Source of the DNA: an uncultured bacterium
GTDB lineage: Bacteria > Patescibacteriota > Minisyncoccia > Phycocordibacterales > DATDWN01
NCBI GenBank assembly: GCA_963727715.1
Contig: CAVSGX010000004.1
Coordinates: 8,455-72,454 of the forward strand
Reading direction: 5' to 3'
Length of the DNA: 64,000 bases
Shown here: piece after piece, positions 36,655 through 48,242 of the stretch
How positions within the stretch are numbered: position 1 is the stretch's first letter
How the letters are laid out: the number at the start of each line of letters is the position of its first letter
Notes under the pieces: generated by a model
The model's input: the letters and a program-made list of their open reading frames with translations, nothing else
Told to the model about the DNA's origin: nothing
The model's database searches: none
Program-made: the position numbers and the translations under genes

Positions 36655-38508
36655 TCAATGCTGTTCAGGTTTATTTTTATCAATTGTGTCGTCCACATTA
36701 AGCACTTTACGCAAAACCTCTTCCGGCACTTCTTTCCCCGACGCTGGCGCGGCTGGGGTTTGGACGATTTCTTTTTTAATTCCGGGTTTTATTTCCGTTT
36801 TTATTTCCGGTTTATTCATAACTTGAGACAGAGCATTTTTCAAACTGGAAATATTTTCCACTGTCGGATTTTTTTTATTTTCACTTGAATTCAGAGTAGA
36901 TAATGAAGCTGTTTGCGCAGTTGGAGGATTCTTATTTGAATCTACTGGTTTTCTCTGCGAAAAAGATTTGTTGCGCAAATCTTCGGTGGCTTTTATAAAA
37001 GCCAACTTATTAGGATCAGGGGTTGCAATTGTTGGAGTATTGTTCTGGTTGTTATATTTCTCTTTCTCACTGAAAGGCTTGTTAAAAATCGGACGATTGT
37101 CGACGCTTCGCTGAGGAGATGCCGGCGCAGATAAGGGCATAGGCGAAAAGCTGGAACGTCCTGTTCCTATATTTCCGTCGCCTTGCCCACCACCAGCCAT
37201 TTTGTCTCTTTGGGCCGATGTCCCCTCTTCATGCCATTTTTTTATTTCTGCCTCGACTTCGCCCCGTGGTCGGGTAAACTGTTTCCACGAGCTTTCCATA
37301 ACTTCTTTTTTGAATGAGACATCCGGCCTAGTAATCGGTGGCATAGTGACAGCTGAAAACGGCGCTGAAGAAACTTCATCGATCATCAATTTCAAATAAA
37401 TTTGGTATTTGCCAAGATTGACCAAATCTTCGGCGGTGAAAGTTGGAGCGAATTCTTTTTCCAAAACTTCAGCATCAAAAGCGCCGACTCGAAATGTGAC
37501 CATGGTGCCAACGTTGCCGAAAACGGCGTCGCGCACTTCCTCTTCCATTTGCTCAATGTACTGATGTGTGATGTTTAAACCTAATTTGTACTTGCGGGCT
37601 TCGGACAAAATGTCGGCAAAAGATTTGTTGGCGAAAGATTGAAACTCGTCCACATACAAATAAAAATTCGGCAGTTTGGCTAATTGCTCTTTGTTTTTGT
37701 CCGCTCGAGACATGGCCGCCAAGTATATTTTTGTGATAAGCATTGAACCAATGAGGTTGGCATTGCCCTCACCAACAAGCCCTTTGGACAAGTTGATGAG
37801 CAATATCTTTTTCTCATCCATAAAATCGCGAATGTCAAAAGATGATTTCGGCTGGCCGATTAAATTTCGGACAAGCGGGTTTGATGTGAATTGTCCGACT
37901 TTGTTTTGAATAGCCGGTGTGGCTTCGGCTGCGTATTTGTCGGTGTATTTGGCAAATTCCTCCGTCCAAAAAGTTTTGACCGATGGATCTTTGATGTTCT
38001 CCACCACTTTTTTGCGATACTCTTTGTCAGCTAACATTCGATTAACACCAAGAAGTGTGGCACCCGGATATTCCAAGAGCGCCAAAAGAGTGTTGTTTAA
38101 AATGTAAGCCATGCGAGCTGACCAAGCATCCACCCAGATTTTCTCAAACGTGGACATGAGGCCGTTGACCACCAGATGTCTTTTGTCCACACCAATATCT
38201 TCCAAGACATTGAAAGAAACTGGATGTTCCAAATCAAATGGCGCGAAATAAAGCACATCTTTGATGCGATTTTCCGGGATGTAATCCAGCAGTTTTTCGG
38301 CCATTGAACCGTGCGGATCTATGACGGCGATACCGTTGCCATTTTGAATATCCTGGATGGCCATATTTTCCAAAAGATTGGACTTGCCAACGCCGGTTTT
38401 GCCGATAACATAAACATGACGCAAGCGATCGCTTTCTTTGATACCAAAACGGATTTTTTTGTTGCGAGCGTCCGTTTCGGCAAAATATGTGATGGGGTTT
38501 GGGTCCAT
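36655..38508 (-). CDS. VirD4/TraD/TraG-like (FtsK/HerA-superfamily) P-loop ATPase with a low-complexity C-terminus
   Basis: HVYVIGKTGVGKSN Walker A, LYVDEFQSF Walker B, and the LGLNITHQY pattern of type IV coupling-protein-like ATPases. Confidence 0.6.
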   Translation of the reverse strand: MDPNPITYFAETDARNKKIRFGIKESDRLRHVYVIGKTGVGKSNLLENMAIQDIQNGNGIAVIDPHGSMAEKLLDYIPENRIKDVLYFAPFDLEHPVSFNVLEDIGVDKRHLVVNGLMSTFEKIWVDAWSARMAYILNNTLLALLEYPGATLLGVNRMLADKEYRKKVVENIKDPSVKTFWTEEFAKYTDKYAAEATPAIQNKVGQFTSNPLVRNLIGQPKSSFDIRDFMDEKKILLINLSKGLVGEGNANLIGSMLITKIYLAAMSRADKNKEQLAKLPNFYLYVDEFQSFANKSFADILSEARKYKLGLNITHQYIEQMEEEVRDAVFGNVGTMVTFRVGAFDAEVLEKEFAPTFTAEDLVNLGKYQIYLKLMIDEVSSAPFSAVTMPPITRPDVSFKKEVMESSWKQFTRPRGEVEAEIKKWHEEGTSAQRDKMAGGGQGDGNIGTGRSSFSPMPLSAPASPQRSVDNRPIFNKPFSEKEKYNNQNNTPTIATPDPNKLAFIKATEDLRNKSFSQRKPVDSNKNPPTAQTASLSTLNSSENKKNPTVENISSLKNALSQVMNKPEIKTEIKPGIKKEIVQTPAAPASGKEVPEEVLRKVLNVDDTIDKNKPEQH

Positions 38509-38594
38509 AATCGTTTATTATTATATCACAGATGATTAAAATCCAAACCACTAAAAGCTCGCCTGATTTTGCTCCGCAAAATCAGAAAGTAAAG

Positions 38595-38660
38595 AAAAAT
38601 TCAAAATTCAAAAACAAAAGAAAAAACAAATCGACAAGAGACAAGCTACCTTTTTGGAAA
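38595..38660 (-). promoter_or_regulatory. Conserved 3' flank of a DGR variable repeat (copy A)
   Basis: aaaaattcaaaattcaaaaacaaaagaaaaaacaaatcgacaagagacaagctacctttttggaaa is identical to 40605-40670 and 43419-43484. Confidence 0.6.
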
Positions 38661-39650
38661 TCACAAGAACGAGCGGGAGAGGCGACCACCCAGAGGCGGA
38701 TGGGAACTGGACGGAGCATCGGCACGGACACCGAGCCGGGAACCGGCGGGGTTCCAATAGGCGCAGACGACACGAAAGGAAGATGGGGCGGTTTTGTCAG
38801 GGTTTGGCACTTTAGACCCGGGCAAAGCGGTCCAGTAGTATAGACCATCTTTCTCGTTTTTGGTGTCTATGTGCTTGCCTGTTTGTTCAAAGATTTTTCT
38901 TTGCAGGATGAGATAATCGGACAGAGTTAGAGATTGGTTCGGAGGCAAGGAGAGAAAGGTTTCAATCTTTTTGTTCAGAGTTTGTTTAAGCTCTGATTGT
39001 TGCCAGAGTTCTTGACTGTGGACTAGAACGATTCTTCTTTTTTTGTCTTCTATTACTCCTTCAAACCCGCCACCCGAGTTGAAATTGCTTCCGGTGTATG
39101 TTTCGTTGTATCCTTCCGACATTTTAGCGTTTAGGTCTGTCAGGTTTGGCAGAGTTTCCGGAATGAGCAGGATTGTGTCAAAACCGTGTTTTTCTATTTC
39201 TTCTCTGATTTGGTCAATGTTTCTTTCCCAGATGTTTTTCATCGTCTCGGAGAAGTCTTTCGGTCTGTCTATGGAGTGGGTTGTGTAAAAGGAAGTAAAG
39301 TATTCTATTTCTTTTTCAATATCTATGGTTATGGTTTCTTTCTTTTCTTCAGTGGTTGTTTTGCCGGTTTTTTCGTCTTTTGTCTCTTCGATATGTTTGT
39401 ATTCCACTTCTAGAGTTGTTGAGGATTTGCCTTCTATCTTTCTTTTGAGAGAACGGCATTGGGAGAGTGTTTCTTTGATTTTCAGGCTTAGTTCTTTCTG
39501 TTTCTCTGTATCTCCGCTCTCAATGGCTTTTAGGAGTTTATCTTTCATTTCTTCGGCCTGAGAGAGCAGGCCTTCCATTACGGTCAAGTCGGCCAGAGCT
39601 TGTTCTTTGGTTGGTGGAGAGTTTGGGATTTTGGGAGATTCGTGGGACAT
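38661..39650 (-). CDS. DGR target protein 1 (cytoplasmic, coiled-coil N-terminus, C-terminal variable CLec-like region)
   Basis: 329 aa. Identical to the 40671..41660 product except for the last 32 aa or so (VVCAYWNPAGSRLGVRADAPSSSHPPLGGRLSRSFL), which overlie the VR. Confidence 0.85.
   Translation of the reverse strand: MSHESPKIPNSPPTKEQALADLTVMEGLLSQAEEMKDKLLKAIESGDTEKQKELSLKIKETLSQCRSLKRKIEGKSSTTLEVEYKHIEETKDEKTGKTTTEEKKETITIDIEKEIEYFTSFYTTHSIDRPKDFSETMKNIWERNIDQIREEIEKHGFDTILLIPETLPNLTDLNAKMSEGYNETYTGSNFNSGGGFEGVIEDKKRRIVLVHSQELWQQSELKQTLNKKIETFLSLPPNQSLTLSDYLILQRKIFEQTGKHIDTKNEKDGLYYWTALPGSKVPNPDKTAPSSFRVVCAYWNPAGSRLGVRADAPSSSHPPLGGRLSRSFL
38664..38771 (-). repeat. DGR variable repeat VR-A
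   Basis: Aligns to the TR (43071-43177). By hand count it differs at 15 TR-adenine positions plus one non-A position (tgt>ggt). Confidence 0.85.
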
Positions 39651-39666
39651 AATGGATGGATGATAA

Positions 39667-40347
39667 TCAGTCTAATTTTATTAATTTCTTTGTCAGAACA
39701 GGAATTTCTTTTTGAAAAAAAGTTTTGACCGAATTCCAATCAGCGTCAAAAAAGATGACCGGCTCTGGATCGCTTTCGGCATCGTCAAAATAAACCATAC
39801 TTTTCAAGATATGGTGATAGTCGTGAGCCACAGACGGATACTGTCCCGGCAATCGTCTGATAATATTTTCCAGCGGTTCCACATTTTTGGCGCACCAGTA
39901 CAAATCAAAGAAATCTCTTTTTCTGCCTCTTTGCGAGCTGGCGATTATTTTCATCACGGCCACATCCGTTTTATTCAAAATTTTGACAAAACCGTATTCC
40001 AAAAATTTTTGTTTTGGAATAAAAAACGGATAAGCGATAAAACTGATTTTGGTGTCATACAATACGCCATATAAAGTGTTTGGTTCATCAATATCCGTGC
40101 TCCAATTTTCATTGCTTGCAAAACGAGATAACAGTTTCTTTGTTATAAAACTTTTTTCTGTGGTAAAAAAATCCAAATCAACAGATTTGCGATTGCCGGC
40201 CTGCAAAGCTAAGGCGGTGCCACCGGCCAGATACCAGCCTGATTCACTCAGCCATTCTTGGGTTGATAAAAAATCCAGAGCTGTTTTGGTTGATTTGGGT
40301 AAACATGAAAAGTTGATGATATTTAATTTTGAAGTGTCAGTGTCCAT
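39667..40347 (-). CDS. Nucleotidyltransferase AbiEii/AbiGii-like toxin family protein
   Basis: WYLAGGTALALQAGNRKSVDLDFFT is the family N-terminal signature. Confidence 0.65.
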   Translation of the reverse strand: MDTDTSKLNIINFSCLPKSTKTALDFLSTQEWLSESGWYLAGGTALALQAGNRKSVDLDFFTTEKSFITKKLLSRFASNENWSTDIDEPNTLYGVLYDTKISFIAYPFFIPKQKFLEYGFVKILNKTDVAVMKIIASSQRGRKRDFFDLYWCAKNVEPLENIIRRLPGQYPSVAHDYHHILKSMVYFDDAESDPEPVIFFDADWNSVKTFFQKEIPVLTKKLIKLD

Positions 40348-40547
40348 AATGCTTTTGTTCTTGGTCTCAAAGACCGTGATGCAGAAACAACTTTTCTCAA
40401 CAATGCCTTGTCATAAAAATTCCAAAGCCAGCGAACCTCATTATCCCTGCCAAAATCTAAAATTCTCTCAATTATATATTGAGCGTTTTTTTCAGTGTCA
40501 ATTCTGCTGACATCGGTGTCCCAAAACAAAGATTGTCTAAATGGCAT
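40323..40547 (-). CDS. Small partner protein of the AbiEii-like NTase (putative antitoxin-like)
   Basis: 74 aa. LFWDTDVSRIDTEKNAQYIIERILDFG pattern. Overlaps the NTase start by 25 nt, which suggests translational coupling. Confidence 0.5.
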   Translation of the reverse strand: MPFRQSLFWDTDVSRIDTEKNAQYIIERILDFGRDNEVRWLWNFYDKALLRKVVSASRSLRPRTKALWTLTLQN

Positions 40548-40670
40548 ACCTTCATTATATCAAATTTTGAGACAATATTCAACAAAAATCAAAATGCAAA
40601 AATAAAAAATTCAAAATTCAAAAACAAAAGAAAAAACAAATCGACAAGAGACAAGCTACCTTTTTGGAAA

Positions 40671-41660
40671 TCACAAGAACGAGCGGGAGAGGCGACCACC
40701 CAGAGGCGGATTGGAAATGGACGGATCATTGGCAACGACATTGAGCTGGGAACCGTCGGGGTACCAATGGGCGCAGACGACACGAAAGGAAGATGGGGCG
40801 GTTTTGTCAGGGTTTGGCACTTTAGACCCGGGCAAAGCGGTCCAGTAGTATAGACCATCTTTCTCGTTTTTGGTGTCTATGTGCTTGCCTGTTTGTTCAA
40901 AGATTTTTCTTTGCAGGATGAGATAATCGGACAGAGTTAGAGATTGGTTCGGAGGCAAGGAGAGAAAGGTTTCAATCTTTTTGTTCAGAGTTTGTTTAAG
41001 CTCTGATTGTTGCCAGAGTTCTTGACTGTGGACTAGAACGATTCTTCTTTTTTTGTCTTCTATTACTCCTTCAAACCCGCCACCCGAGTTGAAATTGCTT
41101 CCGGTGTATGTTTCGTTGTATCCTTCCGACATTTTAGCGTTTAGGTCTGTCAGGTTTGGCAGAGTTTCCGGAATGAGCAGGATTGTGTCAAAACCGTGTT
41201 TTTCTATTTCTTCTCTGATTTGGTCAATGTTTCTTTCCCAGATGTTTTTCATCGTCTCGGAGAAGTCTTTCGGTCTGTCTATGGAGTGGGTTGTGTAAAA
41301 GGAAGTAAAGTATTCTATTTCTTTTTCAATATCTATGGTTATGGTTTCTTTCTTTTCTTCAGTGGTTGTTTTGCCGGTTTTTTCGTCTTTTGTCTCTTCG
41401 ATATGTTTGTATTCCACTTCTAGAGTTGTTGAGGATTTGCCTTCTATCTTTCTTTTGAGAGAACGGCATTGGGAGAGTGTTTCTTTGATTTTCAGGCTTA
41501 GTTCTTTCTGTTTCTCTGTATCTCCGCTCTCAATGGCTTTTAGGAGTTTATCTTTCATTTCTTCGGCCTGAGAGAGCAGGCCTTCCATTACGGTCAAGTC
41601 GGCCAGAGCTTGTTCTTTGGTTGGTGGAGAGTTTGGGATTTTGGGAGATTCGTGGGACAT
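40671..41660 (-). CDS. DGR target protein 2 (paralog of target 1)
   Basis: 329 aa. C-terminus VVCAHWYPDGSQLNVVANDPSISNPPLGGRLSRSFL. Confidence 0.85.
   Translation of the reverse strand: MSHESPKIPNSPPTKEQALADLTVMEGLLSQAEEMKDKLLKAIESGDTEKQKELSLKIKETLSQCRSLKRKIEGKSSTTLEVEYKHIEETKDEKTGKTTTEEKKETITIDIEKEIEYFTSFYTTHSIDRPKDFSETMKNIWERNIDQIREEIEKHGFDTILLIPETLPNLTDLNAKMSEGYNETYTGSNFNSGGGFEGVIEDKKRRIVLVHSQELWQQSELKQTLNKKIETFLSLPPNQSLTLSDYLILQRKIFEQTGKHIDTKNEKDGLYYWTALPGSKVPNPDKTAPSSFRVVCAHWYPDGSQLNVVANDPSISNPPLGGRLSRSFL
40674..40781 (-). repeat. DGR variable repeat VR-B
   Basis: Differs from the TR at 9 adenine positions (hand count) plus the same tgt>ggt change. Confidence 0.85.
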
Positions 41661-41672
41661 GGAAGTATTCTA

Positions 41673-42700
41673 TCATGTTATAACAATATCATTCAATATT
41701 GAAGTCAGTTTGTTTTTTAATCCAAATGAATCGCAGTGTTTCAGTAAAGCAAAATAAGACTGAAAATTATTCTTGTTCATTCTTTCAAAAATTTTTTGCT
41801 TGGTTTTATCTCTCAATAAAAGACAATCTGGCAAAGTCAGAGATCCTAGAAAATCTACTCCCCATTTTAATTTTCTGATTGAGATTTTATCATCCGGGAT
41901 TTGCAGAAACAGTTTTGCCATAAATTTTTTAATTTCAACCAAACAAAACCCCAATCTTTTTTTATTTTTATTTACCAAAATAAAATCGTCGTTGTATCTT
42001 ATATAAAATCTGGCGTTTAATTTTTTCTTCACAAAATGGTCAAAATCGTTCAAATAAATGTTGGCGAAAATCTGGCTGGTGATGTTGCCGAGCGGGATGC
42101 TTTTGTCAGAGCCATGAAGCGAGCAAAAACTTTCTACTATTTTCCCCACTTCCAAAAAAATATTTTCATTTTTCACTTTTCTTTTGATAAATTTCAGCAG
42201 TAGGCGGTGGTTGACACTTTCAAAGTATTTTTTGACATCGCATTTTAAAATAAAAACATCCCCATTTTTTCTTTTCGCCAATCCATTGAAATATTGGAGA
42301 GTTTTGACGGCTTTATGCGTTCCTTTTCCGTCTCTGGATGAATAACGGCTTTATGCGTTCCTTTTCCGTCTCTGGATGAATATGAGTCGGCAATAAATGC
42401 CGGCTCAAATAGATTTTTCAAATAATCGGATATTATTTGATGAATAATTCTATCTTTAACTTCAGCTTTGTGAATATTTCTTTTCTTGTTGTCAGTAACA
42501 ATAAAATGCGAATACCCGCCATGGCGGTAAGTTTTGTTTTTCAGATCTCTGTGCAAATCAAAAATATTGTCTTCCAAATGTCTTTCAAAAATCATTACAT
42601 CCATCTTGGAGGACTTTCCCCGCCGAAATTTCCGCCAAGCTGAAAATATATTATCAAGACTGAATAATTCGTTATAATTTTTATGGAACAAGACGCTCAT
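41673..42700 (-). pseudogene. DGR reverse transcriptase, frame broken by a 38-bp tandem duplication
   Basis: Motifs SYSSRDGKGTHKAV, FILKCDVKKYFESVNH, IPLGNITSQIFANIYLN (DGR-type GxxxSQ) and YIRYNDDFILV (YxDD). Deleting one copy of 42307-42344 restores a 329-codon ORF. Confidence 0.85.
42307..42382. repeat. Perfect 38-bp tandem duplication inside the RT gene
   Basis: acggctttatgcgttccttttccgtctctggatgaata occurs twice in a row (42307-42344 and 42345-42382). Confidence 0.9.
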
Positions 42701-42718
42701 AAAATTGAAAAATTGGAA

Positions 42719-43057
42719 ATGCCTATTATGGCCAAACTCTTTATCATTTACGAACTGACGCACAAGCTTATTTTCAAATTGCCGAAATTTGAAAGATACA
42801 CTTTGGGTGAAAAAATTGAAAATATCATCTTGGAAACGATTGAAATAATTGTCATCGCCAATGGGACGAACAAATACGAAAAAGAAAAATATTTGCTCAA
42901 AGCCAATGCCAAAGTGGAAATGCTTAAGTTGCTTTTTCGCATCGTTTTGAACTGCCAAATCATTGATTTCAAAAAATATTTGGAGGCGGAAGGGTTGCTT
43001 CAAGAAATCGGCAAAATGGCGCAAGGTTGGATAAAATACACCAGAAACGCAAAATAG
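42719..43057 (+). CDS. avd: DGR accessory variability determinant (four-helix-bundle, 23S rRNA-IVS-protein family)
   Basis: MPIMAKLFIIYELTHKLIFKLPKFERYTLGEKIENIILETIEIIVIA...LLQEIGKMAQGWIKY matches the Avd/four-helix-bundle pattern. It is on the opposite strand to the RT, TR and targets. The start could be 42683, 42719 or 42728. Confidence 0.7.
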   Translation: MPIMAKLFIIYELTHKLIFKLPKFERYTLGEKIENIILETIEIIVIANGTNKYEKEKYLLKANAKVEMLKLLFRIVLNCQIIDFKKYLEAEGLLQEIGKMAQGWIKYTRNAK

Positions 43058-43070
43058 CTTTTGTATAAAG

Positions 43071-43177
43071 CAAGAACGGCGGGAGAGGCGACAACCCAGA
43101 TTCGGATTGGAATTGGACGGATCATTGGCATTGACATTGAGCTGGGAATTGTCGGGGTTCCAATTGGCGCAGACGAC
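43071..43177 (-). repeat. DGR template repeat (TR)
   Basis: Sense (minus) strand: gtcgtctgcgcc AAT tgg AAC ccc gAc AAT tcc cAg ctc AAT gtc AAT gcc AAT gAt ccg tcc AAT tcc AAT ccg AAT ctgggttgtcgcctctcccgc. It holds 21 adenines, mostly in AAT codons. All three VRs vary at these positions. Confidence 0.9.
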
Positions 43178-43409
43178 TGCGGTCGCCCCTCGATTAGCTT
43201 TGCGTCGTCATTTCCGTTTGGAAACAAGACTCTATTTATTAGGGGCTACTTCCCCCTGACGCAAAACTGCTGTTCTTGTGTTTTATTTCCACAAATCAAC
43301 GACTATTTGGTTTCTAAAATTCAGAAACCATCTTTCGCCGTCAATTAGCGCTTCGGCAAACCAACTCATCACTGATGGCTTACGAGCCGAAGCGGGCGAT
43401 TTTTGCTTC
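43178..43409 (-). other. Structured non-coding spacer between target 3 and the TR (candidate 5' part of the TR RNA)
   Basis: Nested stems: ttgcgtc..gacgcaa, gggg/cccc, tttcc/ggaaa, ggtttct/agaaacc and gcgcttcggc/gccgaagcg. A minus-strand TTGACG-17-AATTTT promoter-like signal is present. Confidence 0.4.
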
Positions 43410-43484
43410 GCAAAAATAAAAAATTCAAAATTCAAAAACAAAAGAAAAAACAAATCGACAAGAGACAAGCTACCTTTTTGGAAA

Positions 43485-45512
43485 TCACAAGAACGAGCGG
43501 GAGAGGCGACAACCCAGATTCGGATAGGAATAGGACGGATCATCGGCACCGACAACGAGCTGGGAATAGCCGGGGTCCCAATGGGCGCAGACGACGCGGA
43601 AACCGCCGGATGGATTTTTGACTGTTGAGCCGGGTAGCCATGTCCAACCGTCTTCATCCAAATGTTTGCCTGTTTGTTCAAAATATTGCTTTTGATACAA
43701 CAAATAATCTGTCAGAGACATTTTTTCACCTTGCGATATAAACTCCTCGGCTTTTTTATTCAGAGTTTTCTTCAGTTCCGAATGGTCTTTCAGATTTTGA
43801 GCGCTGTTTTTATGAATCAAAACGATTCTTCTTTTTTTGTCTTCTATTACTCCTTCAAACCCGCCACCCGAGTCGAAATTGCTTCCGGTGTATGTTTCGT
43901 TGTATCCTTCTGACATTTTTTTATGTATATCGGTTATGGTCAATCCTCCGGGCACAAGCAAAATCTCATCAAAACCATATTTTTCTACTTCTTGTTTTAT
44001 CTCGTCATAATTGTTCACCCATATATCCGCCATTTCTTCCGCAAATGATTCCGTCAATTCAATTTCGTGAGCTTTATAAAAAAGAAGAGAATCCTCAAGT
44101 TTTTTGTCAAAATTTATTTCTATTTTCTCTTTCTTTTCTTTGCCTTTCTCGTCCACGATTTTGTGTTCGGCAGAAACCACCGGTTCAAACGAACTGCCGG
44201 TCAATTCTCTTCTTTTACTTCTGAAAAATTTCTCCAAATCGGCTATTTCATTTTCAATCTTCTCTATCCCGTCCGCCGGACTTTCGGTTTTACCACCTTC
44301 AGGAATTGCCTCAGCAGACGCTTCTTTTTCTTCTTCGTTATTTTTCTTTTTTCTTTTCGTTCCTTTGCGTTTGGAATCTTTGGTTTCTATTTTGACTTCA
44401 ACCAATCGGATGATTTCTTCCAATTTTGTTCTGTCTTCGGCGCTTTCCAGTCTGTTGACATAATAATATTTCAGGGCTTTTTGAAAAGTTTCGCTGATGT
44501 CGCCATTGTAAAAACGCAAAACAAAATTTCTGACCCGCCTCGGCTCTTCGCGGTCGTCATAGGTGAAAACTTGTGGTTGATCTTCGGCGATTTGCCTGTT
44601 TTTCAAAAGTTCTTTGGCGGTTTTGTGAAATTCCTTGTATTTTTCCAAAATTTCGGCAATGCCTGGAATTTCCGAAAGTTGTTCCTGCGTCAAACCACCG
44701 GCGCCGGATAAAAACATATCATCAGGCAATTCGGCGGTTTTCTTTTCCAAACCGTTCTCTAAACCAAACAATGCACCAGTCGCTTGCTTAAAGGTCTCTT
44801 CCGGTAATTCATTTGGCATTTTTTTATAAACCCATCTGCGAAGCTGAGCTGGATCAAGTGGCTTTCTATCCAAATAACCGGCTCCCGGAGGATTCATAAA
44901 AGCGATGATTTTGGTTTTTTGTTTAGAAACTTTAACTGTTTCCGAAGCGTCTTCTGACAAAATGACATCGCTATCACGCTCCAGAGAATCCAAAACTTCA
45001 TGCAAACGAATCAAAATGTTCGGCGCCGATGAGTTGAATTCGTCCAAAACAATAATTTTGACTTTACCGTCTTCCTGTCGTAAACCGCTAGTTACTTTTC
45101 CGTCGGCGAAAATGTATTCCGGGTCTTCCGCATTATTTTTACGAGGATTTGGTATATATCGGCCCATCAAATCCTCCACATCCGTGGCACCGTTTAAGTT
45201 TATGTAATGAACTTCGTAGCCGAGCTCACTGGCCATTTTTCGCACCGTGGTGGTCTTACCAAAAGATGTTCCGCTTTCCACGGCAATAGGGTCGCCCATG
45301 GAAAACGACACGGCGATGTCACGTTGCAGTGGCAGAGCCACTTCGGTATCATTGGTGTAGTCCTTGTAATTTTCTCTTCTTGGCACAAATTGGCCATTTC
45401 TGTTTTTAGCTTTTTCCAGAGTAACACCCATATAAGAAACACTCCCGTCAGTTTCCATTATCGGCTCCAGTTTTGCTTCCGGATTGTTAAATTGTCCTTC
45501 TGGTGTTTTCAT
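43485..45512 (-). CDS. DGR target protein 3: AAA+ (MoxR/AAA_5-like) ATPase fused to the target C-terminal module
   Basis: 675 aa. GTSFGKTTTV Walker A, IIVLDEFNS Walker B. The C-terminal 230 aa or so is homologous to targets 1/2 (KMSEGYNETYTGSNF.SGGGFEGVIEDKKRRIVL). It ends VVCAHWDPGYSQLVVGADDPSYSYPNLGCRLSRSFL. Confidence 0.85.
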   Translation of the reverse strand: MKTPEGQFNNPEAKLEPIMETDGSVSYMGVTLEKAKNRNGQFVPRRENYKDYTNDTEVALPLQRDIAVSFSMGDPIAVESGTSFGKTTTVRKMASELGYEVHYINLNGATDVEDLMGRYIPNPRKNNAEDPEYIFADGKVTSGLRQEDGKVKIIVLDEFNSSAPNILIRLHEVLDSLERDSDVILSEDASETVKVSKQKTKIIAFMNPPGAGYLDRKPLDPAQLRRWVYKKMPNELPEETFKQATGALFGLENGLEKKTAELPDDMFLSGAGGLTQEQLSEIPGIAEILEKYKEFHKTAKELLKNRQIAEDQPQVFTYDDREEPRRVRNFVLRFYNGDISETFQKALKYYYVNRLESAEDRTKLEEIIRLVEVKIETKDSKRKGTKRKKKNNEEEKEASAEAIPEGGKTESPADGIEKIENEIADLEKFFRSKRRELTGSSFEPVVSAEHKIVDEKGKEKKEKIEINFDKKLEDSLLFYKAHEIELTESFAEEMADIWVNNYDEIKQEVEKYGFDEILLVPGGLTITDIHKKMSEGYNETYTGSNFDSGGGFEGVIEDKKRRIVLIHKNSAQNLKDHSELKKTLNKKAEEFISQGEKMSLTDYLLYQKQYFEQTGKHLDEDGWTWLPGSTVKNPSGGFRVVCAHWDPGYSQLVVGADDPSYSYPNLGCRLSRSFL
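43488..43595 (-). repeat. DGR variable repeat VR-C
   Basis: Differs from the TR at 11 positions, all TR adenines (hand count). Confidence 0.9.
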
Positions 45513-45515
45513 ATT

Positions 45516-45917
45516 TTATGAACGATAAACCGGCCCAACTTTGTCTATAATTTCAAAACTTCTTTCTTTCAATTTCGCCAAAACGCTTTCCGTAGCGACC
45601 AAAACCAAAACCTGACTTTGATAATCAGGTGAAAAAACTTTTGATTCATTTTTTTCTTTATCAAAAATCTCAACTTGACCTGTCGGATACTGCGCGACAA
45701 AATCATATAAGTCCTTCGGTAGATTTTCGTCCAAAACCAGATACATTTTTTGAAAACCAAAAAAATCAAAAACATTTTTTGATGTTTGAAATCCACTATC
45801 TTCAAAAAACTTGATAAAACCACCCATCTCGCTTTCATCCCGCGCCAAAACAAGTCCGACATCTTTTTGTCCTTTCAAGATATCCAGAAACTCATGCAGA
45901 CCTTCGTTTTTGTTCAT
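45516..45917 (-). CDS. Hypothetical protein between the vWA and AAA genes
   Basis: 133 aa, no recognisable motif. Tight spacing (stop at 45516, next start at 45512) suggests an operon. Confidence 0.5.
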   Translation of the reverse strand: MNKNEGLHEFLDILKGQKDVGLVLARDESEMGGFIKFFEDSGFQTSKNVFDFFGFQKMYLVLDENLPKDLYDFVAQYPTGQVEIFDKEKNESKVFSPDYQSQVLVLVATESVLAKLKERSFEIIDKVGPVYRS

Positions 45918-45956
45918 AGTTGTATTCTAACACTAACCGGAAAATTATCAAATTTT

Positions 45957-48242
45957 TCAACCAACAACTTCTTTCTCAAGTATTTCTGATATATCTTTTA
46001 TTATTTTGTCCACTTTTATATTATCGGATTTTAGCGGGTAATAAATAAGCTTTACACCGCCGGCTTTTTCGATTTTGCCTTTAATTTTTTGAAAATCATA
46101 TTTTGAGCCGGGATGTTTAGTGGATTCAGCTGGTCTGTCATCCGAAAAAACAATCATTATTTTGTTGTCTGTTTTTTGTTTTGCAAGTCTTGCCGAAGCG
46201 GTTTCCATAGCCCAACCAATGTCGGTTTCATTATGCTCATTTCCGCAATTTTTGCAACAACTATCTTCAACCTCTTTAAACATTCCTCCCATGTGTTCCC
46301 TGATTTTTTTTGACATTGGCTCTCCAAATTTTTGATACTCGTATATATCATCATTAAAACCGTTAATTTCAACGTTCAATCCTAGTTTGTTTAATGCTTC
46401 AGCCAGCACAACTTTTGCTTTGAAATCTTCTTCAATTTTTTTACGCATAGAACCAGATAAATCGTTTAGAATGGAAATTGAATATTCTTTTTCATCTGGT
46501 TTTTCTCTTTTTTGCCAAGCGTTGCTTTCTATTGGCGAAATGCGTCTGGCTTTTTCCTGAATCCTTGTTTTTATATCAATTCTTTTGCCTATTCTAAAGC
46601 CCTTTTTCCATCTTGTGGTTTGGGTGTCAACAAATATCTGTCTTAGTTTATTTTCCAATTCATCAATCAGCGACGAAACTTCTCGTCGGTGCTTTTCATA
46701 AATATTTTCGTCTTTATTGACTTCTCTTTTTAATCTTTCTTTGTATATTCTCAATCCTTCCAAATCAAGAGGTTCTTTTCTTAAAGTTCCGGTTCTGACC
46801 GGAGCGCCGCCTTGATTTTGATTGTTTATTTCAACCCCTGGCAAATTTTCCGGCGGTTCTGGATTTTTTCTTTCTGCTTTTTCCTCCGGATTTTCAGTCA
46901 ATTTGCCTTCCATTTCTTCGTTTAGTTTGTCTTCAAATTCCTTCAGCGCTTTTTCGGCTCTGTCGGCCAGCTCTTTTTTCACATCTTCCGGAAGCGAGTC
47001 GACATAATCCCTTATTTTTTGTTTTATTTCGTCGGAAAGGTCGTTCAGGTTTATTGTCCTCGCACCGATATCGTCTAGCGTCTGTGGTTGTTCATTGCCG
47101 GTGTTGTCTTCGTGTGGAGTCGGCTTGTTTGTGATTTTATCTTCTCCCTGCCCACCTGTTGACATTGGTTTGATTTTTTCTTTCTCTTTTTTTGCTTCAT
47201 CAATAGCTTTGTCAATAGCATTTTCCAACGTTTTCTTTTCTTCTTCGGTTAATTTGTCTTCCAAATCTTTTGGCAGTTTTGATTTTTTTTCATTTTTTTT
47301 ATCTTCACTTTCTCCTTCCTGATTTCCGTTATCTTTTTGTCCATCACCACCTTCCTTCCCATTTTCTCTTTCTTGCTCTTTTTTCATTTCTTCCATCATC
47401 TTTTTCATCACATCTTTCAACACTTCTTCCATTTTCTCATCCTCTTTATCTGCTTCAACCAGTTTTTTAAATTCTGGCCAAATTTCTTCCAGATTTATTT
47501 CATACGACACTTTGGCGTATTCTTTTATTTTTTCTTCACTTTCATCCGCTTCCTCTCGCGACGGATATCGCCACCAAGAATCCTGAGCTGATTTCAGTGT
47601 GGCTAAAACAACAGCTTTGACTTCTTCGGGCAAATCTTCCGAAATTTCAAAATTCTGTCCCTGTTTTTCACGAAACCATTGTCTAATATATTCATACCCC
47701 GCTTGCACAAAACGCGGTTGGAAACCCAGTTTTTCGGTAGCTTCTTTCTTTTCTTTTTCTCTTTTGGCAAAAAAATCATCCCAAGCAAATTTTATATTTT
47801 CATCGTATTTCGGATAACTCTCGGAAACAAAGTTGTCGTTTCTGGGATCTTCAATGAAATTCATCATAGCTGAAAAGCCCGGTTGTCGCCATGTTTCAAT
47901 CGGAATAAAATCTGTTCTGGAAACTCGTCTATGTCCTCCTTCGTGACAAATTAAATATCTCAATAATTCAATTGGCTCCGTCAGCAGAGTTTTCGGGTCA
48001 ACTCTGATGACATTTTTTTGAAAATCCCAATGCCAGCCAGCGCCTGGTTGGTTTAGTTCTATCGGCATCTCAAAATCTTTGCCAATAAAATAAGCCAGAG
48101 ATGACAAAATATTTTTCTTGCGCAGAATTTCTTTTTGTTCTTCTTCGTTAAATCGCTTCAAGATTTCCTCTTCTGGATTTTGCCGGAGAGAATCGTAGGT
48201 TTGTTCGTTTTGATTGAATTTTGGTCCTTCCATAATTTGCAA
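45957..48242 (-). CDS. vWA-domain protein with N-terminal HExxH metallopeptidase-like domain (DUF2201-like MoxR partner)
   Basis: 761 aa. LICHEGGHRR (HExxH), a long E/K-rich linker, and a C-terminal vWA with MIDAS LNDLSGSM and ..IMIVFSDD. Confidence 0.7.
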   Translation of the reverse strand: MQIMEGPKFNQNEQTYDSLRQNPEEEILKRFNEEEQKEILRKKNILSSLAYFIGKDFEMPIELNQPGAGWHWDFQKNVIRVDPKTLLTEPIELLRYLICHEGGHRRVSRTDFIPIETWRQPGFSAMMNFIEDPRNDNFVSESYPKYDENIKFAWDDFFAKREKEKKEATEKLGFQPRFVQAGYEYIRQWFREKQGQNFEISEDLPEEVKAVVLATLKSAQDSWWRYPSREEADESEEKIKEYAKVSYEINLEEIWPEFKKLVEADKEDEKMEEVLKDVMKKMMEEMKKEQERENGKEGGDGQKDNGNQEGESEDKKNEKKSKLPKDLEDKLTEEEKKTLENAIDKAIDEAKKEKEKIKPMSTGGQGEDKITNKPTPHEDNTGNEQPQTLDDIGARTINLNDLSDEIKQKIRDYVDSLPEDVKKELADRAEKALKEFEDKLNEEMEGKLTENPEEKAERKNPEPPENLPGVEINNQNQGGAPVRTGTLRKEPLDLEGLRIYKERLKREVNKDENIYEKHRREVSSLIDELENKLRQIFVDTQTTRWKKGFRIGKRIDIKTRIQEKARRISPIESNAWQKREKPDEKEYSISILNDLSGSMRKKIEEDFKAKVVLAEALNKLGLNVEINGFNDDIYEYQKFGEPMSKKIREHMGGMFKEVEDSCCKNCGNEHNETDIGWAMETASARLAKQKTDNKIMIVFSDDRPAESTKHPGSKYDFQKIKGKIEKAGGVKLIYYPLKSDNIKVDKIIKDISEILEKEVVG

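Follow-up and report, generated by a model that had tools for sequence, protein, structure and literature searches.

Gene content and layout of the locus

The window analysed here, a continuous stretch of 64 kb, contains a DGR with a reverse transcriptase (RT) gene (41673-42700, minus strand), an avd gene (42719-43057, plus strand), a TR (43071-43177, minus strand, delimited by TR-VR homology) and three target genes. The RT matches Pfam RVT_1 on its C-terminal half, and a perfect tandem duplication of 38 bp (42307-42382, found by repeat search) shifts its frame, a break that is absent from the first-pass annotation of this DNA. Removal of one repeat copy gives an intact protein of 330 aa, 50-68% identical to more than 100 intact homologues. 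Reverse transcriptases of the DGR clade carry the signature (I/L)GxxxSQ; the repaired RT has LGNITSQ together with the YxDD catalytic motif (YNDD), and residues L191, G192, S196, Q197, Y223, D225 and D226 are invariant in 36 homologues. Because the RT is frameshifted, this copy of the DGR may be inactive.

The targets, all on the minus strand, carry VRs at their 3' ends: VR3 (43497-43595) in a 675-aa AAA_5 protein (43485-45512), VR2 (40683-40781) in a 329-aa protein (40671-41660) and VR1 (38673-38771) in another protein of 329 aa (38661-39650). Each VR ends at the stop codon of its target. Adenine-specific TR/VR differences, as expected of a DGR, are found across all three: on the minus-strand reading, 15/16, 9/10 and 11/11 of the TR-to-VR differences fall on TR adenines, and the differences between two paralogous targets are confined to 12 TR-adenine sites. 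Since 35 of the 37 differences fall on adenines in this reading, the TR is of minus sense, like the RT and the targets, as the adenine pattern had initially been taken to indicate. After GTTCTTG the VR and TR sequences part, and the three segments downstream of the VRs are conserved among themselves, constituting an IMH-like segment distinct from the TR end (IMH*).

The first-pass annotation had placed avd on the plus strand, between the minus-sense TR and the RT start (42700), and both its sense and its position are confirmed. The ORF at 42683/42719-43057 matches the DGR accessory protein family bAvd (Pfam PF22296, E = 1.4e-17, 64.5 bits with a cut-off of 40, above the gathering score), and the overlapping minus-strand ORF (43000-43227) has no Pfam match. 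Homologues align from the ATG at 42719, giving a product of 112 aa whose gene converges on the TR and diverges from the RT, with 18 nt between the RT start and this ATG; in relatives, tblastn finds the reversed avd likewise abutting the RT. A promoter-like site upstream of avd (TTATCA-16-TATAAT, 42651-42678, plus strand), within the first RT codons, agrees with 10 of 12 positions in a consensus scan and is a candidate promoter by that match alone. The annotation had also called the layout atypical, which is mistaken for this lineage: in the scheme of Wu et al. (2018, NAR 46:11), TR-(avd)-RT is Architecture B3, comprising 90% of their CPR DGR set, and comparison of avd orientation across relatives found the same TR-(avd)-RT arrangement in 104 of 142 related loci.

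A conserved RNA domain upstream of the TR

The region 5' of the TR (43178-43409), previously noted to be highly structured, folds as minus-sense RNA with an MFE of -86.6 kcal/mol versus -57.6 ± 4.2 kcal/mol for dinucleotide shuffles (z = -6.9; 0/200 as good); in the plus sense its MFE is -71.9 (z = -5.3). Covariation, proposed earlier as a check on this fold, is indeed present among homologous DGRs, in which the region is conserved. P1, P2 and P4 together make up a genuine, conserved RNA domain, about 215 nt long, with strong covariation. In the window and in each of 59 related loci, the covariance model (CM) R1 detects a single copy, which has RT sense, immediately precedes the TR and lies 470-580 nt upstream of the RT; the element is found only beside TRs of the same RT clade. 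The match in the window (43183-43276, 79.9 bits, E = 1e-17) has no second copy in the 64 kb, so the element is not a feature of VRs. In most loci 103-104 nt separate the end of the CM from the TR 3' anchor, a fixed spacing. Rfam yielded nothing meaningful, whether for 38000-46000 (E ≤ 1) or for 43040-43480 (E ≤ 10), and no published description of this RNA was found in the literature searched, from which subscription journals were largely out of reach.

In the minus-strand direction the domain begins with P1 (43350-43393), an outer stem (GCUUCGGC/GCCGAAGC) around the apical hairpin P1a, present in the MFE fold of the window sequence; its 7-bp outer and 5-bp inner stems show compensatory changes in 22 loci, and the inner stem is paired in 90.6% of cells (50 sequences). 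P2 (43296-43344) is predicted to be a hairpin of three tiers, variable at its tip and conserved in the GAAAGA of an internal loop (43331-43336); its shape is the same in single-sequence MFE folds of more than 20 loci, though the helix sequences differ. It is followed by an A-rich joiner (43276-43294), for which a small hairpin is predicted in the window sequence only; the joiner is not conserved in alignments, and some loci have an extra hairpin inserted at this site. The P4 domain (43197-43267) has a 10-bp helix (43258-43267 with 43197-43206) enclosing P4a (43242-43256) and P4b (43211-43224); the helix is paired in 97.7% of cells, and both sides change in nine of its ten pairs. A linker (43192-43196), UAAUC here and UAAAAGA in the A-rich family consensus, leads from P4 towards the TR; it is conserved in two alignments, and an A-rich linker is found at this place in a distant clade also.

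For P1a, P4 and P4a together, 94.7% of cells are paired versus 37-56% in slid controls, and there are 176 double-change cells versus 45.5 ± 7.6 in shuffles (0/500). The evidence for P2 and P4b is weaker than that for P1a, P4 and the two helices described below. G.U pairs frequently alternate with A-U or G-C in the conserved helices, a pattern that fits the RT-sense strand alone. The distant clade keeps P1a and P4. A closing helix seen when the 5' region is folded alone (P0, UCGCCC/GGGGCGA) was rejected, its 5' strand not being conserved and its G-rich strand taking the TR 3' end as partner in folds that contain the TR.

Pairing of the upstream domain with the TR

Two further helices, the clamp and helix T, tie the 5' element to the TR. 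In the clamp, the 10-12 nt just 5' of the TR pair with the A-free 3' end of the TR; in the window the strands are GAGGGGCGAC (43182-43191, minus strand) and GUCGCCUCUC (43083-43092, minus strand), paired in both the MFE and the centroid folds of the 5' region together with the TR (z = -5.3). Clamp positions are paired in 82.9% of cells versus 50-62% in slid controls, with 35 double-change cells versus 11.8, and the cognate duplex energy (-23.5) is better than that of permuted partners (-20.06 ± 0.39; 0/20000). The pairing is specific to the TR: the duplex energy is -23.6 kcal/mol with the TR versus -11.7 kcal/mol with the VR equivalent, the TR being better in 58/58 comparisons, and the 5' strand is missing from VR flanks. 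In distant CPR loci a rough duplex test gave no sign of a TR-specific clamp; a later alignment revealed a homologous element with helix T in those loci.

Helix T joins the RAAC box (GAACAGC, 43269-43275, minus strand), located before P4, to the TR 3' tail (GCCGUUC, 43074-43080, minus strand), where the conserved RNA structure ends. It is paired in 93.3% of cells versus 24-50% in slid controls, and both sides change in five of seven pairs, giving haplotypes that include AAACAGC/GCUGUUU, AAACUAC/GUAGUUU and AAACUGC/GCAGUUU. The distant clade has a RAAC box and helix-T equivalents. With the clamp and helix T in place, the mutagenised TR is a loop of about 89 nt on a three-way junction; between the clamp strands in the window (43093-43181) it is 89 nt long and contains 22 A, and in 54 TR-VR pairs the substituted adenines are confined to the span between the A-free ends, inside this loop. 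The RAAC box is followed by an invariant C-A and a near-invariant G (43269-43267), a C-A-G junction that resembles Sp A56-G57 of the Bordetella phage BPP-1 and is not kept in the distant clade; that the junction A (43268) corresponds to Sp A56 is a weak idea at most, that clade being without it.

Alternative locations and functions for the priming RNA

The first-pass annotation asked where the RNA for cDNA priming resides if avd lies where the phage system has its spacer. The question was legitimate, and the evidence points to the 5' region, no conserved element having been detected in antisense avd. It is nonetheless conceivable, if unlikely, that the priming spacer still lies 3' of the TR in antisense avd, in the phage order TR-Sp-RT, with the 5' element serving in RNA stability, processing or regulation as an RT-mRNA leader. 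In 207 of 278 DGRs with Avd, those of CPR among them, Handa et al. predicted stem-loops that immediately follow the TR and may bind Avd, and a transcript running from TR through antisense avd to RT is plausible: a consensus scan found no sigma-70-like promoter for the RT inside avd, and because the TR-avd gap in the window has no terminator, TR RNA may read through into the RT. Several observations oppose a spacer in this position. The conserved structure ends at the avd stop, which lies 16 nt after helix T in the window and a median of 5 nt after it in 44 loci. Stop and helix are adjacent or overlapping in most loci; the overlap is 1 nt in 13 of the 44, and two others have overlaps of 2 and 6 nt. 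Conserved avd sequence lies at a variable distance from the TR tail, about 9 to more than 160 nt, and the longer gaps contain inserts unrelated to one another, some resembling bidirectional terminators; terminator-like hairpins flanked by A and T runs come straight after the TR tail in several loci and in the distant clade. Neither this variable spacing nor the synonymous codon entropy, which is not depleted at the avd C-terminus, indicates an Sp-like element in antisense avd, and 5' strands already pair with the whole of the TR 3' end. The hallmarks of a BPP-1-type spacer (about 140 nt of non-coding RNA 3' of the TR, with a primer strand and RT/Avd-binding stem-loops) were not found at the locus; an RNA element of flexible sequence may be present inside antisense avd.

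The 5' element could also have no direct role in reverse transcription, being a cis-regulatory leader, an unknown riboswitch or ribozyme, or an independent small RNA. Its complex multi-helix fold, its conserved loops (GAAAGA, CCCUGAUAAAU) and the lack of an Rfam match would suit such a function, and its sequence is compatible with ligand binding or self-cleavage; this reading becomes improbable, however, in view of the two covarying helices that join the element to both ends of the TR at fixed spacing, its restriction to TRs of one RT clade, and the distance of about 480 nt, across an antisense gene, to the nearest same-strand downstream coding start, that of the RT. Very improbable indeed is a DNA-level or target-gene feature, whether the terminator or 3' UTR belonging to the upstream target or a homing cruciform like the inverted repeat that follows the IMH in the phage. 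The target gene with VR3 does lie immediately upstream of the element, and the plus strand, too, is more stably folded than expected by chance. VR1 and VR2, however, have after them the conserved sequence that also follows VR3 but no copy of the element, the clamp partner is missing at VRs, and the many conserved G.U pairs would turn into A-C mismatches if the other strand were used or a cruciform formed.

A probable RNA scaffold on the 5' side

The explanation that we favour is that the 5' region and the TR probably form one structured non-coding RNA of about 320 nt (43393 to 43074, minus strand), a cis-acting scaffold for RT-Avd; its ends, its binding of RT-Avd and its part in priming are predicted from the sequence. 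The hairpin domains P1 and P2 would come first, followed by the three-way junction, in which helix T, formed by the RAAC box and the TR 3' tail, would enclose the P4 domain and the clamp helix. The adenine-bearing TR would thereby be presented with both ends held together beside the conserved domain, and the scaffold would recruit RT-Avd and position the TR 3' end for initiation. The 5' RNA would do from the 5' side the job of the 140-nt Sp and upstream avd segment of BPP-1, and by this analogy it probably replaces the downstream priming spacer of the phage system; of the two strands paired with the TR 3' end, namely the RAAC box with the adjoining C-A-G junction and the 5' strand of the clamp, one would serve as the primer. 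We infer that the scaffold and priming functions lie 5' of the TR, and for this reason avd could occupy the TR-RT interval on the opposite strand. In one close relative (L135) the whole element has been deleted, yet a diversified VR is present; depending on when the deletion took place, this loss would count against the scaffold explanation.

A bolder version, which is possible but rather doubtful, is that the CPR-type DGR RNA is permuted relative to that of the phage, with all RT-Avd-binding and priming elements 5' of the TR. The cDNA would then be primed in cis from the RAAC-box junction or the clamp 5' strand, yielding a retron-like branched RNA-cDNA of which the start and stop are both set by a single three-way junction.

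CPR and DPANN genomes hold a large share of the known DGRs, almost all in the TR-(avd)-RT layout, and the sole mechanistic model, that of the Bordetella phage, has its priming RNA exactly where avd sits here. The structure spanning the 5' element and the TR suggests that the TR ends meet by direct pairing, not through a bridging spacer, and would explain the packing of avd against the TR on the opposite strand. It also supplies defined bounds (~43393 to 43074) for a minimal RNA in reconstitution of a CPR DGR in vitro, and the RAAC box, P4 and clamp constitute a sequence and structure signature by which TRs may be found and oriented in metagenomes. If the 5' scaffold is sufficient, it could be used in compact, retargetable tools for DGR mutagenesis.

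Comparison with known systems

The layout of the locus is wholly covered by Architecture B3 of Wu et al. (2018), with which it shares the order and orientation of TR, avd and RT, a CPR host and targets both upstream and downstream. It differs in that their survey sorts loci by gene order, and its available text has no RNA structure 5' of the TR or pairing of TR ends; the layout is already known, and the structured 5' RNA domain is the new part. Conserved structured RNAs beside bacterial RT genes were described by Weinberg et al. (2017) as the RT-1 to RT-19 motifs, among which RT-10 is a proposed DGR priming element. The present RNA likewise adjoins an RT gene, but none of the RT motifs represented in Rfam matches the region, even at E ≤ 10.

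In geometry alone the RNA resembles retron msr-msd: both have structured non-coding RNA on the 5' side of the template, the start site is fixed by a helix of template-flanking sequences in retrons and would be here, and if the clamp 5' strand or the junction provides a 2'-OH primer, a branched RNA-cDNA would result as in msDNA. The RT belongs to a different clade, however, characterised DGRs require Avd, and the output here is mutagenic homing into VRs; moreover, msr lies inside the stem of the flanking repeats, whereas the structured RNA here lies outside the clamp. The defining retron set, an msr-msd between inverted repeats together with a branching G and an RT of the retron clade, was not found: the RT has DGR hallmarks, adenine mutagenesis between TR and VR is present, and no retron RNA family of Rfam gave a match.

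Another close parallel is the BPP-1 DGR RNA (the avd 3' end, TR and 140-nt Sp; Rfam RT-10), in which the RNA flanking the TR envelops bRT-Avd, TR117-129 pairs with the primer strand Sp47-56 (7 canonical bp), and an upstream segment pairs with Sp59-70, the TR being looped out between these duplexes. Both loci have Avd and a DGR-clade RT, and in both the TR lies within a structured RNA, which in the phage is cis-acting and essential. A short duplex holds the TR 3' end in each (TR117-129/Sp47-56 in the phage; helix T, of 7 bp, and the clamp in the CPR locus), the A-free end of the TR is the pairing site, and the segment just upstream of the TR is also in duplex. The two have no sequence or Rfam similarity; avd is here on the opposite strand, abutting the end of the RNA structure, and cis-priming from a 2'-OH of the RNA to give a covalent RNA-cDNA, a property of the BPP-1 type, is a prediction for the CPR locus. 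The structured RNA lies 5' of the TR here and 3' of it in the phage, and while a strand of Sp bridges the upstream flank and the TR 3' end in the phage, the two are paired with each other here.

Organization of the retroelement and its relatives

The diversity-generating retroelement (DGR) occupies 38.6-45.5 kb of the window, with all of its parts on the minus strand except the accessory gene avd. The core of its template repeat (TR, 43079-43177) recurs as three variable repeats, VR1 (38673-38771), VR2 (40683-40781) and VR3 (43497-43595), each lying 3'-terminally in a target ORF. In the minus sense, 15/16, 9/10 and 11/11 of the TR-to-VR differences, respectively, fall on TR adenines, which bears out the TR orientation proposed in the first-pass annotation. 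The avd gene (ORF 42683/42719-43057, plus strand) matches the Pfam family bAvd (E 1.4e-17), whereas an overlapping minus-strand ORF has no Pfam match, so the plus-strand frame stands. The reverse transcriptase (RT) gene (minus strand, start at 42700) has its frame broken by two perfect tandem copies of 38 bp (42307-42344 and 42345-42382), and the public call for this gene (P0003, 202 aa) mirrors the break. With one copy removed, the gene encodes an intact 330-aa RT with LGNITSQ and YNDD, whose identity to over 100 intact homologues is 50-68%. Either the duplication inactivated the gene very recently or it is an artefact of assembly. The avd and RT start codons are 18 nt apart, and thus the promoter of either gene must sit within the other or further upstream. 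The top sigma-70-like site of the region (TTATCA-16-TATAAT, 42651-42678, plus strand) lies inside the first RT codons, directed at avd.

Every element of the initial observation was confirmed (avd antisense between TR and RT, a minus-sense TR, a structured region 5' of it), but the layout is atypical only against the phage paradigm and is already known: Wu et al. (2018) define it as architecture B3, TR-(avd)-RT, in which avd is reversed. An RT alignment retrieved 160 related loci, 142 with an Avd match, of which 104 have avd reversed and adjoining the RT start; the 38 with avd co-oriented are distant relatives such as Poribacteria, Planctomycetota and Desulfobacteraceae. About 36 Patescibacteria loci share one order, in which target-VR is followed after 247-420 nt by TR, (avd) and RT.

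A 1056-bp duplicated block (38595-39650 and 40605-41660) bears the two 329-aa targets, and its copies differ at only 12 positions, all within the VR and at TR-adenine sites; thus, the DGR diversified both targets once they had been duplicated, an odd finding given the broken RT. Between target 2 and target 1, within the DGR cassette, a DUF6922 gene and an AbiEii nucleotidyltransferase toxin gene (39667-40547, minus strand) resemble a type IV TA pair. The third target (43485-45512, minus strand, 675 aa) carries an AAA_5 (dynein-related/MoxR-like) ATPase domain at its N-terminus and has a C-terminal part in common with the 329-aa targets (DNA repeats D3-D8, approximately the last 150 aa, including the VR); the VR region has no Pfam match in any target. 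Downstream of each VR is a segment conserved between loci too (43419-43484, 40605-40670 and 38595-38660, minus sense), consisting of AGGTAGCTTGT(C/A)(T/G)CTTG and a T-rich tract, and a TTGTAT motif is repeatedly found 5-25 nt upstream of helix P1 of the RNA described below. Segment and motif are candidates for an IMH-side recognition element or a TR RNA promoter.

A conserved RNA element 5' of the TR

The region 5' of the TR (43178-43409) is structured as first noted: its minus-sense RNA folds at -86.6 kcal/mol, versus -57.6 +/- 4.2 in shuffles (z -6.9), and the plus sense folds more weakly (-71.9, z -5.3). The predicted 5' element comprises P1 (with apical hairpin P1a), P2 and P4 (P4a and P4b). 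Alignment of the VR-TR gaps of 22 loci revealed conserved motifs and compensatory changes, the latter in 21 of the 27 pairs called by RNAalifold. A covariance model of the 3' half of the element, R1, has exactly one match per locus, always on the RT strand and 470-580 nt upstream of the RT. Besides the match in the window (43183-43276, 79.9 bits), it finds the element in 25 loci from genomes and 33 from metagenomes, plus one truncated hit; because the 64-kb window contains no other match, the element belongs to the TR and not to the VRs.

Covariation was evaluated in 50 non-redundant copies aligned with MAFFT on sequence alone, with slid partners and 500 shuffles as controls. Paired cells amount to 94.7%, versus 37-56% when slid, and double-change cells to 176, versus 45.5 +/- 7.6 in shuffles (0/500 as many). 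Alternations of U.G/U-A/C-G or G.U/A-U are common among the pairs and fit the RT-sense strand only, which excludes a cruciform and indicates RNA (or that single strand). P2 and P4b are less well supported than the other helices; when over 20 loci are folded singly, P2 keeps its three-tier shape and GAAAGA internal loop despite differing helix sequences. In L003, L088, L082 and L158 (related loci), an additional hairpin, CACCCTGTTAAA...TTTAACAGGG, is inserted between P2 and helix T (see below), just 5' of the RAAC box, indicating that the joiner there tolerates insertions. A scan of the region against Rfam, which presumably holds the RT-associated motifs of Weinberg et al., gave no match. The RT-10 motif of that set is the phage spacer.

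Pairing of the element with the TR

Two helices join the element to the 3' end of the TR. In the clamp, GAGGGGCGAC (43182-43191, minus strand), within the stretch of 10-12 nt that immediately precedes the TR-VR homology, is complementary to GUCGCCUCUC (43083-43092, minus strand) at the A-free TR 3' end. The partners covary across loci (GAGAGCCG/CGGCUCUC, AGAGGCGGAGC/GCUCCGCCUCU, CGGGGCGG/CCGCCCCG, GGGGGACGGC/GCCGUCCCUC), with 82.9% of cells paired in MAFFT alignment A5 versus 50-62% slid, and 35 double-change cells versus 11.8 +/- 3.1. Independently of alignment, cognate duplexes average -23.5 kcal/mol versus -20.06 +/- 0.39 when permuted (0/20000). The clamp is specific to the TR (-23.6 versus -11.7 kcal/mol for the equivalent VR flanks; TR better in 58/58) and appears in MFE and centroid folds of 43058-43400 alike.

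Helix T, found through a mutual-information scan, pairs the conserved RAAC[U/A][G/A]C box just before P4 (43269-43275, minus strand) with the TR tail G[C/U]NGUU[C/U] (43074-43080, minus strand). Its haplotypes are GAACUGC/GCCGUUC (16 loci), AAACAGC/GCUGUUU (10), AAACUAC/GUAGUUU (8), AAACUGC/GCAGUUU (6), AGACAGC/GCCGUCU (1) and AAAUAGC/GCUAUUU (1); 93.3% of cells are paired versus 24-50% slid, both sides change in 5/7 pairs, and there are 43 double-change cells versus 13.4 +/- 2.5. The topology is nested, with helix T closing off P4, an A-rich linker, and the clamp and its TR loop, forming a three-way junction whose nucleotides are strongly conserved (C-A-G on one side, CC on the other). This structure fits the spacing of 103-104 nt between the element and the TR 3' anchor in most loci, the start of TR-VR homology in mid clamp 5' strand, and the confinement of substituted adenines to the TR loop between A-free ends.

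In a distant B3 clade (L025, L026, L033, L039, L119, L118, L029 and L019; RT approximately 40-47% identical), the covariance model found no match, but alignment from about 250 nt upstream of the TR to its tail revealed homologous P1a, RAAC box, P4 and A-rich linker. The helix-T equivalents covary (AGAAAC/GUUUCU, GGAAAC/GUUUCC, GGGAAC/GUUCCC); the C-A-G junction is not conserved. A terminator-like hairpin with A and T runs directly follows the TR tail, suggesting that the TR RNA of this clade is a separate transcript. The close relative L135, whose Avd is 65% identical, has a deletion (L135:1900-2150) that fuses the post-VR segment to about nt 25 of the TR and removes the whole 5' element and the clamp 5' strand; its VR is diversified at adenine sites even so.

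Nothing comparable to the 5' element was found 3' of the TR, judging by the gap, its inserts and avd codon diversity. Across 44 loci, the median distance from helix T to the antisense avd stop is 5 nt (at most 20 nt in 37/44); stop and helix overlap by 1 nt in 13/44, and two others have overlaps of 2 and 6 nt. Longer TR-avd gaps hold unrelated inserts, several of them hairpins between A and T runs that resemble bidirectional terminators, and codons at the avd C-terminus show at least as much synonymous diversity as those in the rest of the gene.

Comparison with the phage DGR

What folds 5' of the TR is a genuine RNA, conserved and integrated with the TR, that is best classed as a new form of DGR cis-acting RNA. 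A literature search of incomplete coverage found no published description of it; the screen of TR flanks by Handa et al. reached no further than 40 nt upstream and 100 nt downstream, and so the element would have escaped it. Functional statements throughout are drawn from sequence, in an assembly where the RT is frameshifted.

In the DGR of Bordetella phage BPP-1, the RNA around the TR envelops bRT-Avd. TR117-129 is paired with the primer strand Sp47-56 of the spacer RNA 3' of the TR (7 canonical bp, priming A56, then G57), an upstream avd segment is paired with Sp59-70 (the "cPRT Stop"), and the TR is looped out between these two duplexes; cDNA starts at G117, leaving the last 17 nt of the TR uncopied. 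In the DGR described here, the geometry would allow priming from the clamp 5' strand, retron-like and with a stop built in, or from the RAAC-box strand with its C-A-G junction. As in the phage, the two ends of the TR lie side by side and its A-free 3' end is held in short duplexes; unlike in the phage, direct pairing with the strands flanking P4 would give this spatial result, from which we infer that the spacer function has shifted to the 5' side of the TR in this lineage, which would explain how antisense avd can sit right against the TR.
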